DNA from: a virus | Lineage: Duplodnaviria > Caudoviricetes | DNA length: 53,985 nt | IMG/VR virus record: IMGVR_UViG_3300010370_000051 | Location: 1-53,985 of that record | Reading direction: 5' to 3' (one strand) | In this document: positions 33,873 to 51,535 of the stretch, piece by piece | Layout of the letters: each line of letters starts with the position of its first letter | How positions within the stretch are numbered: the stretch's first letter is position 1 | Notes under the pieces: generated by a model | The model's input: only the letters and a program-made list of their open reading frames with translations | What the model was told of the DNA's origin: nothing | Database searches by the model: none | Translations under genes and position numbers: made by a program

Positions 33873-34112
33873 TTGCCAACTTATAGATTTGAAAATACTG
33901 AAACTGGTGAAATTTTTGAGAAGTGGATGCTTATGGCAGAAAAAGAACCATACTTAAAAGAAAATCCTAATCTTAAACCACTTATTCCAACACAAATGAA
34001 TGTTGGGGAAGTGGGTGATTGGAGAAATAAATTAACTTCAAAACATCCTTCGTGGAACACTGTATTAGAAAAAGCCAGCAGAGCTCCAGGTTCAACTGTA
34101 AAAAAACTATAA
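33873..34112 (+). CDS. Conserved T4-like hypothetical protein (FmdB-like N-terminus)
   Basis: TTG start with RBS ggagg; MPTY.F.N..TGE. Confidence 0.8.
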   Translation: MPTYRFENTETGEIFEKWMLMAEKEPYLKENPNLKPLIPTQMNVGEVGDWRNKLTSKHPSWNTVLEKASRAPGSTVKKL

Positions 34113-34157
34113 ACCAGGTTATAATATAAATAGTTATAGCATTCCAACCTAGTTTAT
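34109..34157 (+). promoter_or_regulatory. Start-sequestering hairpin with internal T4 late promoter
   Basis: ataaac-c-aggtt / aacct-a-gtttat arms; TATAAATA at 34125. Confidence 0.7.
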
Positions 34158-34755
34158 GCCTAGACCTTATATAAAACATCCAGAAATAAAAGTTGGAGAT
34201 AAATTTTATTATCTTGAAGTTATATCTCCACCTTTTTATGAAACTTATCCAAGTGGTAAAAAAAGGAAAAAAATTCTGTGTAAATGTATTTGTGGAAAAG
34301 AAAAAGTTTTTAGATACGATAGTTTTGTATGTAAAAACGAATTAGATCGAGCAAAAAGTTGTGGGTGTAAGCATACTTATAGAAATAATTTTAATGCTCA
34401 AAAAAGAAGAAAACCTGAAAGTGTTTATAGATACATTTATGAGCAATATAAATCGGGAGCAAAAACTAGAAATATAGAATTTAATTTATCAAAAGAAGAT
34501 TATCTTGAAATTGTTAAAAAAGATTGTTATTACTGTGGATCCAATCCAGAACTAAAACAACCCCATAGGGGTAAAAATTATTATGTTGGTGTTCCTGTTC
34601 CTTACAATGGAATTGATAGAATAGATAGTAGTGTGGGATACGAAAAAGAAAATTGTGTTCCTTGCTGTAAAAAATGTAATTATATGAAAAGTGATATGAA
34701 TGTTTCTTCATTTATGGAACATATTTTAAAAATAGCAAATCATCAAAAACTCTAA
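34156..34755 (+). CDS. Putative HNH-type homing endonuclease
   Basis: CKCICG...KSCGC; CYYCG...GIDRIDSS.GY...NCVPCCKKCN.MK. Confidence 0.85.
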   Translation: MPRPYIKHPEIKVGDKFYYLEVISPPFYETYPSGKKRKKILCKCICGKEKVFRYDSFVCKNELDRAKSCGCKHTYRNNFNAQKRRKPESVYRYIYEQYKSGAKTRNIEFNLSKEDYLEIVKKDCYYCGSNPELKQPHRGKNYYVGVPVPYNGIDRIDSSVGYEKENCVPCCKKCNYMKSDMNVSSFMEHILKIANHQKL

Positions 34756-34756
34756 T

Positions 34757-35509
34757 ATGTCTAGAAGAAAAAGAGCAGATCAACCAATTGGCGTTGGTCT
34801 TACCACTCGTCAGATGAAGCGCAGAAAACCACTAAGTTCTGAATATCTGATTGATATCGATCCACTCACAGAAAATCAGAAACGACTGTTTGAATCCTAT
34901 GCTGCTCAAAAGCATTTAGTTGCTTATGGGTGTGCTGGAACTGGTAAAACTTTTATTACTCTTTATAATGCTATAAAAGAAGTTTTAGATGAAAGATCTC
35001 CATATGAAAGAATTTATCTGGTTCGTTCTTTAGTAGCAACTAGAGAAATTGGATTTCTACCAGGAACTTATGAGGATAAATCTGACATTTATCAGATTCC
35101 TTATAAGAATATGGTGAAGTATATGTTCCAACTTTCAAGTGATGCTGAGTTTGAAATGCTTTATGGAAATCTCAAGTCACAAGAAACTATTAAGTTCTGG
35201 AGCACTTCATTTCTTCGTGGAACAACTCTTGATAATGCGATTGTTATTGTTGATGAATTTCAAAACTGTACTGCACACGAATTAGACTCCATCATCACTC
35301 GTATTGGTGAAAATTCTAAAATTATGTTCTGCGGTGATGCTTCACAGTCAGATTTGCAGAAAACAAATGAGCGTAATGGTATTGTAGATTTTATGACTAT
35401 CTTGCGTAAAATGCCATCTTTTGATATAATTGAGTTTGGTGTAGATGATATTGTTCGTTCTGGACTTGTTAAAGAGTACATCATTGCAAAAATGGAATCT
35501 GGTTTTTAA
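34757..35509 (+). CDS. phoH: PhoH-family ATPase
   Basis: GCAGTGKT, IGFLPG, FLRGTT, VDEFQN, GDASQSD. Confidence 0.97.
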   Translation: MSRRKRADQPIGVGLTTRQMKRRKPLSSEYLIDIDPLTENQKRLFESYAAQKHLVAYGCAGTGKTFITLYNAIKEVLDERSPYERIYLVRSLVATREIGFLPGTYEDKSDIYQIPYKNMVKYMFQLSSDAEFEMLYGNLKSQETIKFWSTSFLRGTTLDNAIVIVDEFQNCTAHELDSIITRIGENSKIMFCGDASQSDLQKTNERNGIVDFMTILRKMPSFDIIEFGVDDIVRSGLVKEYIIAKMESGF

Positions 35510-36186
35510 TGTTTAATCATATTGATATTGAACTCCCTCAGTTGGAGCGTGAAACCATCGATGGTGTAAGGTACTATAAAGTTCCTGATGAAGAAGAACT
35601 TCTCCGACTGGTCTCCATCACTTCGGTGACCAGTCATTTTAATAAAGATATCTTTATTAATTGGCGTAAAAAAGTCGGTGAAGAAGAAGCAGAGCGTGTT
35701 ACAAAAGCGGCAACAAGTCGTGGAACTGATATGCACTCTCTTGTAGAGAACTATCTTTATAATAAGAACTTGCCGACTGTTGCGCCGATTGCGGATTTTC
35801 TTTTTAAGATTGCGAAAATGGAACTGAATAAAATCAATAATATTCATTGTTTGGAAGGTGCATTGTATAGTAAACAACTTGGTGTTGCTGGAACAACGGA
35901 TTGTATTGGAGAGCACGATGGTGAACTTGCTGTAATTGATTTTAAGTCTTCAAAAAAACCTAAACCAAGAGAGTGGATTACGCATTACTTTGTTCAAGCA
36001 ATGTTTTATGGTATGGCGTATTATGAAATGACTGGAACACCTATTAAAAAACTAGTCATTATTATGGCGTGTGAAAATGGAGAATGTGTTCTTTATGAGG
36101 AAAGAGATTTAAAAAAATATATGAAACTTGTAGTTCAATATATTAAAAAGTTTGTAAATGACCGTCTTGAACTTATGTCTAAATAA
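35509..36186 (+). CDS. PD-(D/E)XK exonuclease (exonuclease A / Cas4-like)
   Basis: SITSV, RGTDMH, AGTTDC, IDFKSS, YFVQ. Confidence 0.9.
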   Translation: MFNHIDIELPQLERETIDGVRYYKVPDEEELLRLVSITSVTSHFNKDIFINWRKKVGEEEAERVTKAATSRGTDMHSLVENYLYNKNLPTVAPIADFLFKIAKMELNKINNIHCLEGALYSKQLGVAGTTDCIGEHDGELAVIDFKSSKKPKPREWITHYFVQAMFYGMAYYEMTGTPIKKLVIIMACENGECVLYEERDLKKYMKLVVQYIKKFVNDRLELMSK

Positions 36187-36188
36187 GA

Positions 36189-36272
36189 GTGCCTGTCTGG
36201 GTCGCACTTTTCAGGTGGGGAGTATTTTTGCTCCCCTTATAAATACTATTGCGACCCCGATAGAGTAGAGAT
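36189..36272 (+). promoter_or_regulatory. Structured leader A upstream of Seg-like endonuclease
   Basis: gtgcctg-N11-cttttcaggt, hairpin, TATAAATA (36238), antisense arm tgcgacccc. Confidence 0.75.
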
Positions 36273-36926
36273 ATGAAAAAATATTTTTATGTTTATTATT
36301 CTTATGAAGAATTTGGAAGAGGATATATTGGAAGCAGAATTTGTAAATGTCTTCCAGAAGAAGATATAAAATATTTTGGTTCTTATAAAGATAAAACTTT
36401 TAATCCTACTGAAAAAATAATCTTAAAAAGTGATTATGCTACACGGGAAGAGGCATATGCTGATGAAATTATATTGCATCAATATTATAAAGTAGTAGAA
36501 AATCCACACTTTGTTAATAGAGCATATCAAACTTCTACGGGATTTTCAACATATGGGAAAAATCATACAGAAGAACATAAAAAACATTTAAGTAAATTAC
36601 TTAAAGGTAGAAAACTTTATACAAATAAACCTCACCCCTTTTTAGGAAAAAAACATACTGAAGAATGGAAATTAAATCAAAGTGATAGGATGAAAAATAA
36701 TAATCCTATGAAAAAACCAGAAATTTCTATGAAACAATCACTAAAAATGAAAGGAAAAATTCCTTGGAATAAGGGGATAAGTGATTTAAGTATAACTGGA
36801 GAAAAAAATCCAAGAGCAAAGAAAATTATTTTTAATGGTGAAACTTTTGGATGTATAAAAGATGCTATTGAAAAAACAGGTATATCACGTCATATGATTA
36901 AAAAATCTTGCACTTTCATTGACTAA
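36273..36926 (+). CDS. Seg-like GIY-YIG homing endonuclease with NUMOD3 repeats
   Basis: YVY...GRGYIGSR...YFGS; GKNHTEE/GKKHTEE, PWNKG. Confidence 0.85.
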   Translation: MKKYFYVYYSYEEFGRGYIGSRICKCLPEEDIKYFGSYKDKTFNPTEKIILKSDYATREEAYADEIILHQYYKVVENPHFVNRAYQTSTGFSTYGKNHTEEHKKHLSKLLKGRKLYTNKPHPFLGKKHTEEWKLNQSDRMKNNNPMKKPEISMKQSLKMKGKIPWNKGISDLSITGEKNPRAKKIIFNGETFGCIKDAIEKTGISRHMIKKSCTFID

Positions 36927-36959
36927 TATATTATTTTAAGATATAATAAATACCATATT

Positions 36960-37274
36960 GTGAAAATTATGAGCAATCCGTTAGAAAATCTTCTAGAATT
37001 CAAAATAGAATATATGGAACCAAATAAAGAACTAGAACAAGCCATCGAGAATAAGTTTCTAACGCCTTCCAAGTTTGCTCTGGAAATCGAAAAGATTGTT
37101 GCAGAGGAAAACTTTAACTATATTGATGCAATCGTTCACTATTGCGAAATCAATAGTCTTGAGGTAGAATCAGTAACAAAACTCATTTCAAAACCATTGA
37201 AAGAGCGATTAAAGTGGGACGCAACCCGTCTTAACTTTATGAAAAAAACTTCGAGAGCACGACTTCCGCTATGA
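36960..37274 (+). CDS. gp33: Late transcription coactivator gp33 (true start may be 36969 or 37014)
   Basis: IEKIV...YIDAIVHYCE...LKERLKWDA..LNF. Confidence 0.9.
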   Translation: MKIMSNPLENLLEFKIEYMEPNKELEQAIENKFLTPSKFALEIEKIVAEENFNYIDAIVHYCEINSLEVESVTKLISKPLKERLKWDATRLNFMKKTSRARLPL

Positions 37275-37861
37275 GTCCTTTTGAGACATATCAAACTTAT
37301 CTTTCGATGAAAAGTCATTTTACAAATAGTAAATATGACTTTTTTAAGTATGGAGGCAAATCTAGAGCAACGGTCACTTCATTTAACAAACGTAAGGACA
37401 AATACTGGTTCGAAAAGAGTTCTAGAAAATATAACGATAAAGAAATAGTAGATTTTTTACTTGCAAACTTTGTAGCATCTGATAACCCACAAAACTTATG
37501 GATTGGAGAAATTATCAATTCTGGCGAAAGAACTTACGCAGATTGGATGCGAAGACAACAGAGTTTGACTTACTTGTTCAAGGAGCAAAGCAACGAATTG
37601 TTCTCGGAGACAAAATTAGAGGATGCACTGAGTTGTTCCAGAGGTCATCCACCAGTCCTCAAAAGGTTTCTAAGCGGGAAATTATCGCTAGAAACCTTCG
37701 TAATCTACGACAAAATCTTTTCTTTTTCAAAGGATTTTGATAAGAAACTGCTGGACCCAGTGTGGGAAACCGTAAGTTTGAAAATTAAAAAATATAATCC
37801 GTTTCTAAATATTGACGTATTCCAATTTAAAAAAATTTTACGGGACATTATAAATGAGTAG
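37271..37861 (+). CDS. gp59: Helicase loader gp59
   Basis: YLSMKSHF...YDFFKY.GK...FNKRKDKYWFEK. Confidence 0.92.
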   Translation: MSPFETYQTYLSMKSHFTNSKYDFFKYGGKSRATVTSFNKRKDKYWFEKSSRKYNDKEIVDFLLANFVASDNPQNLWIGEIINSGERTYADWMRRQQSLTYLFKEQSNELFSETKLEDALSCSRGHPPVLKRFLSGKLSLETFVIYDKIFSFSKDFDKKLLDPVWETVSLKIKKYNPFLNIDVFQFKKILRDIINE

Positions 37862-38186
37862 CTTTTTTGATTCCGATATTATTCAAGAAGAACTGAAAGA
37901 AATCAATAAGTTGCAAGAGGAGATTTACGGAAGTATTCTCACTTTTGGTGCGATGAACCGTGAAACAAAACTGGAACACATTGAAAAACTACAAGTGCTC
38001 CTTGAAAAGCAACGTGTAATGTATACACGTCTGTCTCTTTCTGATGACCCCGAAGCGGTTGAGATGAAAGAGAACCTTCGCAAATCAGTTGCCCTGATGG
38101 GATTCCCACCAGAGACTGATATGAGCATCCTGTTCAGCAGTATGGACAAGACAATCGAATCTCTCAAGCGATACGTTGACCGCTGA
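37854..38186 (+). CDS. DUF1825-like conserved cyanobacterial/cyanophage protein
   Basis: FFDSDIIQEE...KQRVMYTRLSLSDDP. Confidence 0.85.
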   Translation: MSSFFDSDIIQEELKEINKLQEEIYGSILTFGAMNRETKLEHIEKLQVLLEKQRVMYTRLSLSDDPEAVEMKENLRKSVALMGFPPETDMSILFSSMDKTIESLKRYVDR

Positions 38187-38195
38187 TAAATACTT

Positions 38196-38283
38196 GTGCC
38201 TGATCGGGTGACACTTTTCAGGTAGAAAAGGGCACCGATGCCCTTTTCTTGTATAAATACTTATGTCACCCGATTAGAGAAGA
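38196..38283 (+). promoter_or_regulatory. Structured leader B upstream of Seg-like endonuclease
   Basis: gtgcctg-N11-cttttcaggt, 11-bp hairpin, TATAAATA (38252), antisense arm tgtcacccgattag. Confidence 0.75.
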
Positions 38284-38979
38284 ATGAAGAAGTATTTTTA
38301 TGTGTATTATTCTTATGAGGAATACGGAAGAGGTTATATTGGTAGTAGAGTCTGTGATTGTCTTCCAGAAAATGATGTAAAATATTTTGGTTCTTATAGA
38401 GATAAATCTTTTAAACCAAATCAAAAAATTATTCTAGAAGTATTTGATAATGTGGAAAAGGCACTTGAAGCAGAATGTGTTCTTCATAATTTCTATGAGG
38501 TAGATAAAAATCCTCATTTTGCTAATAAGGCAAAACAAACTTCTAAAAAGTTTTATCATTGTTCATTTGGTGAAGAAAATCCTTCAAAGAGAGACAATGT
38601 TAGAGAAAAAATTAGGTTAGGAAAACTTGGAGAAAATAATCCAGCAAAAAGACCAGAAGTTAGAGAAAAACTTTCTGTTGCTCGTAAGAAAAGAATAACA
38701 ACCGAAGAAACAAAAAGAAAAATGAGTGAAGCACATAAAGGAAGACCTTCACCAAAAGGAATGTTAGGTAAAAAACTTACTGAAGAACAAAAGCAAATAA
38801 TGAGAGAAAAAAGGGAAAAATTTAATAATAAAAATTGGTTATTAAAAGACCCTGAAGGAAAAATTCATACCACAAATAATTTAAAATATTTTTGTAATTT
38901 AAATAATTTAACTGATTCTGCTATGCATCGTGTAATTTCTGGTAAAAGAAAACACCATAAAGGTTGGACCAGGGCTTGA
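38284..38979 (+). CDS. Seg-like GIY-YIG homing endonuclease with NUMOD3, paralog of 36273
   Basis: MKKYFYVYYSYEEYGRGYIGSR; TEETKRKMSEAHKG; HHKGW. Confidence 0.85.
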   Translation: MKKYFYVYYSYEEYGRGYIGSRVCDCLPENDVKYFGSYRDKSFKPNQKIILEVFDNVEKALEAECVLHNFYEVDKNPHFANKAKQTSKKFYHCSFGEENPSKRDNVREKIRLGKLGENNPAKRPEVREKLSVARKKRITTEETKRKMSEAHKGRPSPKGMLGKKLTEEQKQIMREKREKFNNKNWLLKDPEGKIHTTNNLKYFCNLNNLTDSAMHRVISGKRKHHKGWTRA

Positions 38980-39004
38980 CATCCCTTTATAGATCTTCTA
39001 TAAT
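38976..39004 (+). promoter_or_regulatory. sigma70 promoter of gp32
   Basis: TTGACA-17 nt-TATAAT. Confidence 0.9.
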
Positions 39005-39057
39005 AAAGTTGTCGCAAAACCAAATCCGACAAATCCAATTTATCCAAAGTAATCCAA

Positions 39058-39984
39058 ATGTCATTCCAAGACCTTAAAAAACAATCCAAACTCGGCAATC
39101 TTACTGCTAAACTTGTTAAAGAAGTTGAAAAGATGAGTAGCAGTAGTTCTTCTTCCGATGAACGTTTCTGGAAATTAGAGTGTGATAAAGCAAATAATGG
39201 ATTCGCTGTAATTCGTTTCCTCCCTGCTCCGAACGGTGAGGACCTGCCGTTTGTAAAGATTTATTCTCACGCTTTTCAGGGAGTATCTGGTTGGTATATT
39301 GAAAACAGTTTAACTACTCTGGGTCAGAAGGATCCTGTGTCCGAACTGAACTCTGAACTGTGGAACAACGGTACTGATGCTGGTAAAGAACTGGCACGTA
39401 AGCAGAAGCGCAAACTGACTTATGTGTCTAACATCTACGTGGTGAAGGATCCTGCCAACCCCGAGAACGAAGGTAAAGTCTTCCTGTTCAAGTACGGTAA
39501 AAAGATCTTCGACAAATTGACTGCTGCAATGCAACCAGAGTTTGAAGATGAGGAAGCAATCGATCCGTTTGACTTCTGGCAAGGTGCCAACTTCAAACTG
39601 AAGGCAAAGAACGTTGCTGGTTATCGTAACTATGATTCTAGTGAGTTTGCTAAACAAGGTGCTCTGCTGGACGATGATGACGCTATGGAAGCAGTGTGGA
39701 AGAAGCAGTATTCTCTTGCCGAACTCGTTGCTGCTGATCAGTTCAAGTCCTATGATGAACTGAAGAAGCGTCTTGACTATGTGCTTGGCACCAAAGGCAC
39801 TCCCCGTTATCAGGACCCTGAAGATCTGGATGAAGACAACACCCGTGGTTCTACTCGTGAACTTACTGAAGACCTCCGTGAAGAACTATCTTCTCTGAAA
39901 CCCACTCGCCGTGCTGCTGCGGTTGAGGAAGATGAGGACGATGTGGACGACACTTTGTCATATTTCGCAAAATTGGCAGAATAA
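39058..39984 (+). CDS. gp32: ssDNA-binding protein gp32
   Basis: DERFWK, AVIRFLPA, WYIENS, YGKKIFDK, NYDSSEF, acidic tail. Confidence 0.97.
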   Translation: MSFQDLKKQSKLGNLTAKLVKEVEKMSSSSSSSDERFWKLECDKANNGFAVIRFLPAPNGEDLPFVKIYSHAFQGVSGWYIENSLTTLGQKDPVSELNSELWNNGTDAGKELARKQKRKLTYVSNIYVVKDPANPENEGKVFLFKYGKKIFDKLTAAMQPEFEDEEAIDPFDFWQGANFKLKAKNVAGYRNYDSSEFAKQGALLDDDDAMEAVWKKQYSLAELVAADQFKSYDELKKRLDYVLGTKGTPRYQDPEDLDEDNTRGSTRELTEDLREELSSLKPTRRAAAVEEDEDDVDDTLSYFAKLAE

Positions 39985-42553: not shown

Positions 42554-42990
42554 TACCGAATACCAAGTTCGTTTTCTGTGAGCACTTTGAATTCATATCC
42601 TCTATCAGCACACCACTCTTTTGCTGCTTCCCATTTTGATTGATTTTTAGCATATTCATAAACCTCAGCAATATATTTCTTCGTTTGTCTTTGAGGTTTT
42701 TGTGGTGGTGCAGTTTGTTTTGATGGTTTAATTTCAATCATATATTTCTTGATTGAACCATTCGCTTCTTTGACTTTAATTAGAAAATCAGGAAAATAAC
42801 GGTGTATTTTACCATCTATTGGAGAACGGTAAGGAATACATTTTTCTTCTGATGCCCACTCAATGATATTTTCATTTAAGTCGCAATAAACACAAAACTT
42901 ACGCTCCCATAAAGAACGATAGATGATATTTGTTGGATCACCCTTGTACTTTTCTGGAAAGGATGGTTTATATTTTCCTTTATATGACAT
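42553..42990 (-). CDS. gp4: Head completion nuclease gp4
   Basis: KYKGDP..IIYRSLWE, WASEE, HRYFPDF, IEIKP, NQSKW. Confidence 0.93.
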   Translation of the reverse strand: MSYKGKYKPSFPEKYKGDPTNIIYRSLWERKFCVYCDLNENIIEWASEEKCIPYRSPIDGKIHRYFPDFLIKVKEANGSIKKYMIEIKPSKQTAPPQKPQRQTKKYIAEVYEYAKNQSKWEAAKEWCADRGYEFKVLTENELGIR

Positions 42991-43030
42991 CTAAATACTT
43001 ATACTATAAAACTCATATAAGGTATTTAGA
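42990..43030. promoter_or_regulatory. Opposed late promoters for divergent genes
   Basis: CTAAATA on + at 42991 and on - at 43023-43029, within an inverted repeat. Confidence 0.7.
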
Positions 43031-49465: not shown

Positions 49466-51535
49466 ATGTTCGATCAATCTTTACTTCAGAGCAATTTTAT
49501 AGGAAGAGATGGATTCCGTTGGTGGATAGGGCAGGTTCCCCCATTATCAAAAAGAGATGAGGGTCTTAAAAAACAAGTTTCTGAAGGAAAAGGATGGGGA
49601 TATAGACATAAAGTTAGAATTATTGGTTATCATCCTTATAGTGAGGCAGATCTTTCTAATGAGGAATTGCCTTGGGCACAAGTAATGTTGCCCACAACAG
49701 CAGGAACAGGAGCACAAAATTATGCAGTTAATCCAAAGATAAGTCCTGGTGATGTTGTTATTGGATTTTTTCTAGATGGTGATAATGCTCAAGTTCCAAT
49801 TATTATGGGAGCATTGGGCAATACCTCTCAAATCACAACACTCTCTCAAGGGTACGCTTCTCCATTTATTCCATTTACTGGATACACTGATAATATTAAA
49901 AAACCAAATGGGAGATTAATACCAGACCAAACAAGTGAATCCAACATTAATTCAAATCCATCTCCAGTAATAAAACCCTCAGATAAGACAACACAAAATC
50001 AAGTTTCAGCTTCACCACATATACTTGGAAGAGAAGTTACATTTGCTGATACTTGTGAAGATACATCGATTAAAACAATCAAGTCTGAAATTAATAACCT
50101 TTTGAAAGATATTCAAGATGCAAAAAATAAAGTAAGTGAATATAAACAAAAAGCAGATGCTGTTGTAGATATTATTGTAGCAAGTATTGAATGGCAAGTT
50201 GGTCAGATGATAGATGGTTTGTTTATTTTTTTATGTGGTGATGATACTGCAACTCCACCAAAACCTGGATTAATCACAGAAGGTTTAGATAAATTATATA
50301 AAACTGTATTTGGGTCAACATTAGCAGCAACTGGAAATCCTGGTATAGCACATCAAGCTGGTGTTGCTGCTGTTGAACCTTTTGTTCCTGCTGTTAAGAC
50401 TTTAGAAGAAGCAATTTCCTGTGTCACCGCACAGGTAATTAATGGTCTTAAGGCATTAGTTAAAGCTTTGCTTCGATCTTTACTCGATAATGTTAAAAAC
50501 TTCGTATCTTGTGCTGCAGAACAATTTGTTGGTGCTCTTTTAAATTCTGTTGTTGATGCAATTGCCACTGGTCTTTCTAGTGCTTTAGATGGTGTTGCAA
50601 GTATTTTAGGAACAGCGTTAGACGTTGCTGATTTCCTTCGTAGTACAAATGATTTGATTAAATCAATTGGTGGTCTTTTTGATTGTAATCAAAATCAAAA
50701 CAAGTGTTCAGGTCTTGTAAAAGAATATGTAATTGGACAAGGTCCAAAATCTAGTATTAATGCAATATCTTCATTTGAAAATATTTACAATAATGTCAAT
50801 AATATGGTTGAACAAGCTGGAAATATCGCTGGTCAAGTTCAAGGTTATATTGGAAGTTTTGAAAATATTACTCAAACTCTAGATATTTTTAATCCAGAAC
50901 AAGCACTTCAAAGTGCTTTAAGTGGATTAGAAGGTTGTTATGCAGGTTTTCCAACATCTTGTGGACCACCAGTCGTAAATATATTTGGAGGCGGTGGTAG
51001 TGGTGCTACAGCGGTTCCTATTTTTGGTTCAATTGTTAATAATCGATTAATTAACAATGTTAATCGAACGGCTAGTATTATTGGTACAACTGTTACAAAT
51101 GGTGGTTCTGGTTATACATTCCCACCATTTGTAGAATTTGTCGATAACTGTGGACTGGGATATGGGGCAATCGGTCGTGCTTTGATTAATGATCAAGGAC
51201 AAGTTACTTCAATTTATATGGTTTCGCCAGGAGAAAATTATCCTGTTGGTGAAGTAAATTCTAATACAGTAACAGATGTTTATGTTGATTCCCCTGGATA
51301 TGATTATTCGAATGGAGACACTGCTACAGATAATTTTGGAAATGAATATGCCTTATCAATTGATAATGGTGCCATCATTTCTGCGACACCAATAAATAGA
51401 ATTGAGGTCACTGATGAAGTGACAATCAATATTAATTCAGAAACTGGTACCGGTGCGATTTTAAAACCGATCCTAGGTCTCACATCAAATGTTCCAGAAG
51501 GAAAAATTCAAAAACAAGTAGATTGTATCATATAA
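49466..51535 (+). CDS. gp5: Baseplate hub/spike gp5-like (OB-fold N-terminus)
   Basis: GFRWWIGQV, KVRIIGYH, LPWA, VIGFFLDG..AQ.P.IMG. Confidence 0.85.
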   Translation: MFDQSLLQSNFIGRDGFRWWIGQVPPLSKRDEGLKKQVSEGKGWGYRHKVRIIGYHPYSEADLSNEELPWAQVMLPTTAGTGAQNYAVNPKISPGDVVIGFFLDGDNAQVPIIMGALGNTSQITTLSQGYASPFIPFTGYTDNIKKPNGRLIPDQTSESNINSNPSPVIKPSDKTTQNQVSASPHILGREVTFADTCEDTSIKTIKSEINNLLKDIQDAKNKVSEYKQKADAVVDIIVASIEWQVGQMIDGLFIFLCGDDTATPPKPGLITEGLDKLYKTVFGSTLAATGNPGIAHQAGVAAVEPFVPAVKTLEEAISCVTAQVINGLKALVKALLRSLLDNVKNFVSCAAEQFVGALLNSVVDAIATGLSSALDGVASILGTALDVADFLRSTNDLIKSIGGLFDCNQNQNKCSGLVKEYVIGQGPKSSINAISSFENIYNNVNNMVEQAGNIAGQVQGYIGSFENITQTLDIFNPEQALQSALSGLEGCYAGFPTSCGPPVVNIFGGGGSGATAVPIFGSIVNNRLINNVNRTASIIGTTVTNGGSGYTFPPFVEFVDNCGLGYGAIGRALINDQGQVTSIYMVSPGENYPVGEVNSNTVTDVYVDSPGYDYSNGDTATDNFGNEYALSIDNGAIISATPINRIEVTDEVTININSETGTGAILKPILGLTSNVPEGKIQKQVDCII

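Follow-up and report, generated by a model that had tools for sequence, protein, structure and literature searches.

Homing endonucleases and TnpB proteins are products of selfish genes that need enough expression to spread without harming the phage that carries them. Several such genes in T-even phages and their relatives (I-TevI, I-TevII, I-TevIII and segB of T4; mobE of Aeh1), lying as selfish nuclease genes among early and middle genes, are controlled by RNA masks: a helix forms only on transcripts from upstream promoters, and a late promoter, TATAAATA, within that helix yields late transcripts free of it (PMC2988022, accessible part). In 2009, Dassa et al. reported hairpins in the 5' leaders of endonuclease genes at 'fractured gene' loci on cyanophage-like metagenome contigs (PMC2677866, accessible part). 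In Aeromonas phage 25, a very stable hairpin stands just upstream of the ribosome-binding site of seg43(25) and leaves that site unsequestered (PMC2988022, same part). Here we describe an RNA module of about 100 bases that occurs twice, ahead of two paralogous nuclease open reading frames (ORFs A and B), in a viral DNA stretch of 53,985 nucleotides (nt) (IMG/VR record IMGVR_UViG_3300010370_000051, positions 1 to 53,985; 'the window' below means this whole stretch). The module is a new form of this known kind of control, and the T4 and Aeh1 masks and the 2009 hairpins share its core logic.

The window is a 54-kb fragment of a freshwater, T4-like cyanomyovirus. Read directly from the sequence, module copy A spans 36178-36272 and copy B 38185-38283, and both show the layout claimed for them by an earlier model reading of the bare sequence (the first-pass annotation): a late-type box, four bases, TGCCTG, a variable segment of 11 nt, CTTTTCAGGT, a GC hairpin, TATAAATA, four bases, the reverse complement of the variable segment, a purine tract and ATG. 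A search of the window for TGCCTG-N8-16-CTTTTCAGGT gives exactly two matches, and 100 shuffles gave none. Both pairing segments lie on the plus strand, about 45-50 nt apart. The features are as follows, with P1 and P2 denoting the two late-type promoter boxes and lengths in base pairs (bp) or amino acids (aa).

36178..36185, plus strand: copy A, upstream late-type box P1, TCTAAATA, with a TAAATA core
36190..36216, plus strand: copy A, hairpin-1, stem TGCCTG / CAGGT, its loop made of the variable 5' arm and CTTTT
36190-36195, plus strand: copy A, TGCCTG
36196-36206, plus strand: copy A, variable 11 nt (5' arm)
36207-36216, plus strand: copy A, CTTTT CAGGT
36217..36236, plus strand: copy A, GC-rich terminator-like hairpin of 8 bp with a loop of 4, followed by TTATAAATA
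36238..36245, plus strand: copy A, consensus late promoter P2, TATAAATA, in the loop of the long-range helix
36250-36262, with bulges to 36266, plus strand: copy A, 3' arm, complement TGCGACCC(C)GATA
36250..36272, plus strand: copy A, 3' arm and purine-rich ribosome-binding region, with ATG at 36273
36273..36926, plus strand: nuclease ORF A, 217 aa, homing endonuclease with NUMOD3 (PHROG 314, E 4e-20; Pfam)
38185..38192, plus strand: copy B, upstream late-type box P1, GATAAATA, immediately past the TGA stop of the DUF1825 gene
38197..38223, plus strand: copy B, hairpin-1, stem TGCCTG(A) / (T)CAGGT(A), its loop holding the variable 5' arm
38197-38202, plus strand: copy B, TGCCTG
38203-38213, plus strand: copy B, variable segment (5' arm)
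38214-38223, plus strand: copy B, CTTTT CAGGT
38224..38249, plus strand: copy B, terminator-like hairpin of 11 bp, the inner GC stem followed by TTTTCTTGT
38252..38259, plus strand: copy B, consensus late promoter P2, TATAAATA
38264..38283, plus strand: copy B, 3' arm (38264-38277), then purine tract to 38283, with ATG at 38284
38284..38979, plus strand: nuclease ORF B, 231 aa, homing endonuclease with NUMOD3 (PHROG 314, E 5e-23; Pfam)

To map the module beyond the window, viral contigs were scanned with a pattern that fixes the scaffold words. This returned at least 119 loci, 52 of which carried the full layout by script criteria; together with the two window copies they make 54 instances and 43 distinct sequences among the matches listed, while the other 67 loci were listed as chance matches or decayed copies. 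A second, unbiased set comprised loci encoding relatives of ORF B: among the 49 with the N-terminus present, the module stood upstream in 44 (interrupted by the contig end in two) and was lacking in five. A covariance model built from 18 representatives gave 80 matches, 76 of them distinct, on uncultured viral contigs from 95 sources. By the same model, a complete 243-kb viral genome has five copies, and the cultured freshwater Synechococcus phage S-SRM01, by blastn the sole named phage with the element, has six. None of four marine cyanophage genomes (P-SSM2, S-PM2, ACG-2014f, Sf-CH5) held a copy, so that published start-site maps cannot be used for the module. Rfam returned nothing at gathering score for the module, a single tRNA for the whole window and nothing at E<1 within 36100-38400. 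The literature outside subscription journals yielded no account of the module scaffold and none of a small RNA accompanying homing endonuclease genes, and the words 'promoter', 'hairpin' and 'RNA-seq' are absent from the S-SRM01 genome paper.

Several individual copies deserve mention. Within the window, the covariance model recovered only the two full copies and one weak partial match on the plus strand at 42946-43004 (21.2 bits, E 0.009, model positions 18-75), which contains CTTTTC, a small hairpin and a CTAAATA box amid minus-strand structural genes and may be a chance match or a remnant. One locus (L116) has a decayed module in which the upstream box, hairpin-1 and one half of the middle hairpin survive and unrelated sequence follows, and two (L048, L094) have modules without the 3' arm. 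Five loci (L058, L133, L136, L170, L174) contain tandem nuclease cassettes, with two module copies spaced 1-1.6 kb apart. At S-SRM01 positions 51291 and 192466 (L225, L226), the annotated coding sequence (CDS) starts within the region of the module's middle hairpin, upstream of the ATG that follows the 3' arm; these deposited gene starts are probably too long. The S-SRM01 CDS at 62515 carries the name 'translation initiation factor 2', but its start resembles that of nuclease ORFs that follow other module copies. For the S-SRM01 copy at 192430, identity with the psbA-splitting endonuclease of PMC8557907 was considered and dropped, as it lies between glycosyltransferase and GDP-mannose dehydratase genes. 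Three metatranscriptome runs contained 5-7% of the sampled words and yielded assembled contigs of relatives 88-95% alike, which leave the modules uncovered. One low-depth RNA contig from run X18 joins 38236 to 38913, a deletion from the middle hairpin into the end of ORF B.

The strongest signal across the family comes from the long-range helix between the two arms. Pair counts were taken from a model-fitted alignment (A3), which is biased towards the model's own structure; MAFFT alone misaligned the middle hairpin. In this alignment, 93.7% of 819 long-helix cells pair, as opposed to 65.2% after shuffling (0 of 500 shuffles as high), and pairing reaches at most 42.4% when the partner columns are slid. 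Changes on both sides occur in 11 of 11 pairs, amounting to 226 such cells versus 68 expected, which bears out the original designation of the two copies as a conserved, covarying RNA element. G-U cells number 69 and A-C cells 4 (18 versus 4 once the nearly fixed first pair is left out). In the window, the read-through RNA of copy A folds at -35.9 kcal/mol (z-score -5.05) and that of copy B at -38.6 kcal/mol (z-score -7.59), with none of 200 shuffles as good; the reverse strand folds less well (-28.6 and -36.6 kcal/mol, respectively). The excess of G-U over A-C and the better folding of the sense strand argue for selection on the sense-strand RNA rather than on DNA. In the predicted folds, 36191-36206 pairs with 36250-36266 in copy A (15 pairs, two interruptions) and 38200-38213 with 38264-38277 in copy B, the latter through 14 contiguous pairs with one G-U, as the first-pass annotation had counted.

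Two local hairpins lie within the module. Hairpin-1 is nearly invariant in the pattern-derived set, and in the model alignment 89.8% of its cells pair versus 87.5% after shuffling; even so, eight cells are changed on both sides against 1.5 expected, a figure reached by 0 of 500 shuffles. Divergent members, which the model alignment handles poorly, replace the usual GCCUG/CAGGU stem by ACCUG/CAGGU, GCCUG/CGGGC, GCCUUAA/UUAAGGC, CCUAAG/CUUAGG, UGCUUAUG/CAUAGCA or UGCUU/AAGCA, so the GCCTG/CAGGT pairing singled out earlier is either kept or changed compensatingly in relatives, and the loss of conservation that would have counted against the first-pass reading was not seen. The middle GC hairpin is found throughout the distinct elements examined (75 of 75), with a mean folding energy of -14.6 kcal/mol and 6-13 pairs, and the sequence of its stems varies freely among lineages. 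It comes in two classes, the first resembling copy B, with a GC stem followed by UUUUCUU, and the second resembling copy A, with only UU before the P2 box; in copy A itself the U tract is weak, with four T among the nine nt past the last G-C pair.

All 21 of 21 representative read-through RNAs place the long helix in the minimum-energy fold and displace hairpin-1, whereas the 21 truncated RNAs all fold as hairpin-1 plus the GC hairpin. The same holds for the window copies, in which an RNA cut past the GC hairpin is predicted to form two abutting hairpins, hairpin-1 and the GC hairpin (36191-36240 in copy A, -22.6 kcal/mol, z-score -4.82; 38198-38254 in copy B, -26.0 kcal/mol, z-score -4.33). 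In copy B and in divergent members (more clearly in L138, L145 and L168), the long helix uses bases of the hairpin-1 5' strand. Because of these shared nucleotides and the split between read-through and truncated folds, the modelled long helix and hairpin-1 are alternatives, mutually exclusive within one RNA. Of the 'competing or pseudoknotted' stem proposed at first, the competing part thus stands; a pseudoknot is unlikely, since the helices share nucleotides and would leave no linker to cross a helix of 11-14 bp.

Promoter boxes were counted over the 76 distinct family copies. P2 reads TATAAATA in 70 and lies 21-30 nt upstream of the ATG. The TAAATA core of P1 is present in 74, at a fixed spacing of 3-4 nt ahead of hairpin-1: 49 copies have the form NATAAATA, including five with the full T4 consensus TATAAATA, 25 have NCTAAATA, and two lack P1. 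The form NATAAATA is a late promoter form of cyanophages (PMC2984593, accessible part). Both P1 and P2 are followed by four bases and then a T-purine step. T4 late transcription starts six bases past the box. If this rule applied here, by analogy, an RNA from P1 would begin at the first paired base of hairpin-1 and an RNA from P2 one base into the 3' arm. The upstream late-type promoter and the terminator-like hairpin of the first-pass annotation are thereby conserved parts of the unit (74 of 76 and 75 of 75, respectively).

Each nuclease ORF together with its leader is one inserted mobile unit. The genes of the region are those for a PD-(D/E)XK exonuclease, gp33 (the late-transcription coactivator), gp59, a DUF1825 protein and gp32; both nuclease ORFs are free-standing, ORF A between the exonuclease gene and gp33 and ORF B between the DUF1825 gene and gp32. 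S-SRM01 lacks cassette A, and its genes for the exonuclease and gp33 overlap. In contigs of relatives, 67-76 letters of other sequence bridge 36102/36107 and 37013, and likewise 38182 and 39070. The upstream box is therefore part of the inserted unit; in copy A, P1 encloses the stop codon (36184-36186) of the exonuclease gene. An abutting same-strand ORF was seen in 52 of 61 distinct upstream contexts, which makes read-through RNA expected and a real problem for the cassette.

The nucleases behind the module belong to several families: a Pfam GIY-YIG protein, NUMOD3-only proteins, an endonuclease VII-like protein and four TnpB paralogues (398 aa, OrfB_IS605 and Cas12f1-like TNB; L217-L220 of the one complete 243-kb viral genome). 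The TnpB repeat unit, about 1.4 kb long and present at different sites, begins about 10 nt ahead of P1 and ends in a shared ...GTTTTTGTTACTAT; because it starts there, the control module of homing endonucleases also forms the left end of an element for an RNA-guided nuclease. A single loop class, in which the middle hairpin is the same as well, heads at least five ORF types at different sites, and at the site behind the exonuclease gene one loop class precedes three ORF types. Since loop classes do not follow the genes, the loop is a lineage mark of the module and not a gene-specific address, contrary to the initial idea of a gene-specific loop moving with its nuclease.

How does the module compare with the systems described before? 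Like T4-type masks, it has a homing endonuclease ORF directly 3', a predicted covarying helix and TATAAATA between the arms. Unlike them, it is a portable scaffold of fixed layout that bears another late-type box further upstream and a local hairpin competing with the mask; its mask encloses a terminator-like hairpin, and one family serves many nuclease types. Its helix stops at the edge of the ribosome-binding site, whereas the T-even masks bury both site and AUG (PMC2988022, accessible part). With the hairpins of Dassa et al. it shares cyanophage-like hosts, a position upstream of free-standing endonuclease ORFs, the late promoter TATAAATA within the hairpin and two mutually complementary conserved motifs; however, the motif sequences printed there (text of supplement Figure S4) are unrelated to the module scaffold, and the accessible part of that paper mentions no second promoter, first hairpin or enclosed terminator (PMC2677866). 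The seg43(25) hairpin is alike in its stability, its place just upstream of the ribosome-binding site and the unsequestered site, but it is a single case for which the accessible part of the review describes no family, second promoter or covariation (PMC2988022).

We consider it probable that the module is the 5' control unit of a self-contained mobile nuclease cassette and acts mainly in cis, as an insulated, late-only translational lock. Transcription arriving from the upstream same-strand gene would be partly terminated at the GC hairpin. RNA that reads through would contain both arms, so that the GCCUG stretch, which resembles an anti-ribosome-binding-site sequence, and the variable 11 nt could pair with the leader; the resulting helix of 14-15 bp would reach into the purine-rich ribosome-binding tract and leave the nuclease untranslated. 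Late transcripts from P2, in the loop of the helix, would begin roughly one base inside the 3' arm, be free of the 5' arm and be translatable. Hairpin-1 would keep the 5' arm folded locally until the 3' arm is made, giving the same folding in any genomic context, and a sigma-70 promoter at the 3' end of the nuclease ORF would restore expression of the essential gene downstream. The sequence layout, the two covarying helices, the conservation of the promoter boxes and the unit's mobility are observed, whereas termination, start sites and the effect on translation are inferred. A cis lock, that is, the known T4 logic in a new modular form, is the best-supported reading.

Several observations sit uneasily with a pure cis lock. 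It has no need of P1, yet the TAAATA core of this box is nearly universal, nor of the 3' strand of hairpin-1, which is nonetheless conserved and covarying. The start codon lies outside the long helix, which ends 7 nt (copy A) or 6 nt (copy B) before the ATG and takes in only the first bases of the purine tract (GAG/GU with bulges in copy A, AG in copy B); predicted occlusion of the ribosome-binding site is therefore partial, as in the seg43(25) case. Past the GC hairpin, copy A and its class have a weak U tract, and a simple terminator scan called the GC hairpin of neither copy. The conserved P1, the covarying 3' strand of hairpin-1 and the edge-only cover of the ribosome-binding site are left unexplained by the lock, and they fit a short late RNA with the 5' arm exposed in a loop.

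A tentative extension of the cis lock adds just such a small RNA acting in trans. P1 would be active as a late promoter, with transcription running from the base of hairpin-1 to the GC hairpin and yielding a stable RNA of ~50-57 nt that consists of two abutting hairpins. Conceivably, the variable segment, displayed in the hairpin-1 loop of this RNA, would then pair with the extreme 5' end of the P2 mRNA and damp late translation or possibly stabilise the message. On this account, each cassette might bring one late small RNA with a loop co-evolved with the 5' end of the adjacent nuclease mRNA, a portable and largely orthogonal leash; it is possible, though we hold it doubtful, that this leash would set the dose of homing endonucleases and TnpB in T4-like cyanophages.

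Evidence from both promoter and fold speaks for such an RNA. The P1 core always stands 3-4 nt ahead of hairpin-1, P2 shows the same T-purine spacing, and the T4 start rule given above would put the 5' end at the first paired base of hairpin-1. Pairing in hairpin-1 is kept under sequence change, and its displacement in the read-through fold implies that it matters only for a short or nascent RNA. The antisense pairing to its own 5' untranslated region, which the first-pass annotation had suggested, is supported by cofolding: the short RNA gains -11.2 (copy A) and -12.7 kcal/mol (copy B) with its own leader but only -0.2 and -0.5 kcal/mol when crossed. In three genomes with two, five and six copies, no two loops within a genome are alike, and each row (13 of 13) has the cognate leader as the best partner.

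Other observations speak against the small RNA. P1 is weaker than P2, as the full TATAAATA occurs in only five of the 76 copies and NCTAAATA in 25, and the U tract of the copy A class is weak. TAAATA(A) also supplies stop codons to the truncated upstream gene, an alternative cause of its conservation. One loop class serves at least five unrelated ORF types. Specificity is not strict, in that crossed duplexes among the TnpB paralogues reach -19.1 kcal/mol versus -21 to -25 kcal/mol for cognate ones. Fast compensated change is also expected of a purely cis hairpin, and the GC hairpin stems change equally fast; for the latter reason we do not claim diversifying selection on the loop among the four TnpB paralogues. 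Nothing points to the antitoxin- or guide-like RNA that was originally envisaged; the first-pass interpretation as a whole is partly supported.

Known antisense RNAs offer parallels for the small RNA. IS10 RNA-OUT, which targets RNA-IN, and art200 of IS200 are antisense RNAs read from the strand opposite their target in the same DNA, so that complementarity follows of itself. If the small RNA exists, it would resemble the IS10 type in that its loop pairs with the very 5' end of the nuclease mRNA, beside the ribosome-binding site, and the loop is indeed complementary to this end; opposite-strand encoding, in contrast, is not found. Both partners lie on the plus strand and must co-evolve, as the covariation shows. 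StxS, a small RNA that arises when the late transcript of a Shiga-toxin phage terminates early, likewise combines a phage late promoter with a closely following terminator and a short regulatory RNA, but it belongs to a lambdoid prophage, is an antitermination by-product and targets host functions rather than the adjacent leader (PMC7547250, accessible part).

It is very unlikely that conservation acts at the DNA level instead, with the module as a recombination site or landing pad for cassette shuffling and RNA folds as a secondary matter. Such a role would account for near-identical modules ahead of at least five unrelated ORF types, for the single site at which one module precedes three ORF types and for the tandem cassettes in five loci. 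It also has a precedent in the PeSL cassettes of T4-type phages, short units of a promoter and a stem-loop that bound variable ORFs, travel with shuffling and have been proposed to mediate it (PMC2839356, PMC4122927, accessible parts). Against it stand the G-U excess and the compensation in 11 of 11 pairs, which reflect selection on sense-strand RNA pairing. Moreover, the module, although shared among unrelated ORFs like a PeSL, has late-type boxes, with sigma-70 promoters only at the ORF 3' ends, whereas PeSLs are defined by early sigma-70 promoters joined to a stem-loop and lack a long-range mask; the accessible parts of the PeSL papers do not treat cyanophages, and the word 'cyanophage' is absent from that of PMC4122927. 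Recombination at the module would in any case be compatible with an RNA function and no replacement for it. More improbable still is an RNA device of another kind (a ribozyme, a riboswitch or a site bound by a phage protein or by the nuclease): although the two helices do not account in full for the fixed scaffold and the invariant single-stranded CUUUU, and I-TevI represses its own late promoter by operator binding (PMC2988022, accessible part), the lack of an Rfam match at the thresholds given above and the same scaffold ahead of unrelated nucleases, including TnpB, argue against it, the latter in particular against recognition by one nuclease.

The module seems to provide an insulated expression unit, ready for use, with which unrelated nucleases can settle between essential genes of the phage. 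It defines a large, strongly covarying RNA family absent from Rfam, with two exclusive helices and two late promoters, and the six copies in the cultured pair of S-SRM01 and Synechococcus sp. KCZYC6 make the choice between a cis lock and a cis lock plus small RNA directly testable. Should the small RNA exist, it would be the first class of trans-acting regulatory RNA linked to homing endonucleases, and a counterpart, encoded on the same strand, to the antisense control of transposons; homing-endonuclease and TnpB biology would gain an RNA-RNA layer, and a set of natural, largely orthogonal RNA pairs would be at hand.

The ORFs themselves had been called paralogous Seg-like endonucleases. Paralogy is confirmed by 39% identity (E 5e-42), and ORF B has an I-HmuI-like C-terminal DNA-binding part. 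The Seg-like, GIY-YIG assignment was not formally reproduced by Pfam or fold searches: Pfam GIY-YIG PF01541 was reached neither by ORF A or B (E<=0.01) nor by any of 10 relatives (E<=0.1), and the assignment rests solely on an N-terminal YVY...YIG spacing seen by eye. The nuclease structure model is poor (mean predicted local distance difference test score (pLDDT) 64.5), with a beta-beta-beta-alpha order where pLDDT is 50-69, and a fold search with it returned nothing at E<=0.001 and GIY-YIG-fold entries only at E>1.

Two sigma-70-type promoters close the nuclease ORFs and are the two top promoter matches within 35400-39400:

36919..36947, plus strand: sigma-70-type promoter at the 3' end of ORF A, TTGACT-17-TATAAT, 11/12 matches, overlapping the ORF stop and a late-type box
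38976..39004, plus strand: sigma-70-type promoter on the stop of ORF B, TTGACA-17-TATAAT, a perfect 12/12 matches

Judging from their positions, the first would restart gp33 and the second gp32. S-SRM01, the closest named phage at about 80% identity to the window (a record of completeness class about 25%), keeps the same sequence as the promoter at 38976-39004. The arrangement mirrors promoters embedded in seg genes, as covered in a T4 review (PMC2988022, accessible part).

A third nuclease gene of the window, at 34156-34755, encodes an HNH/endonuclease VII-like protein (PHROG 3118, E 5e-16). Upstream of it (34105-34165) there is only a TATAAATA box at 34125, in a short, imperfect hairpin that reaches the AUG (-9.6 kcal/mol, z-score -1.5) and would make a weak, simple T4-type mask without the scaffold. 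Directly past gp32, the ORF at 39911-40618 matches PHROG 1384, 'Mom-like DNA modification protein' (E 2e-36).

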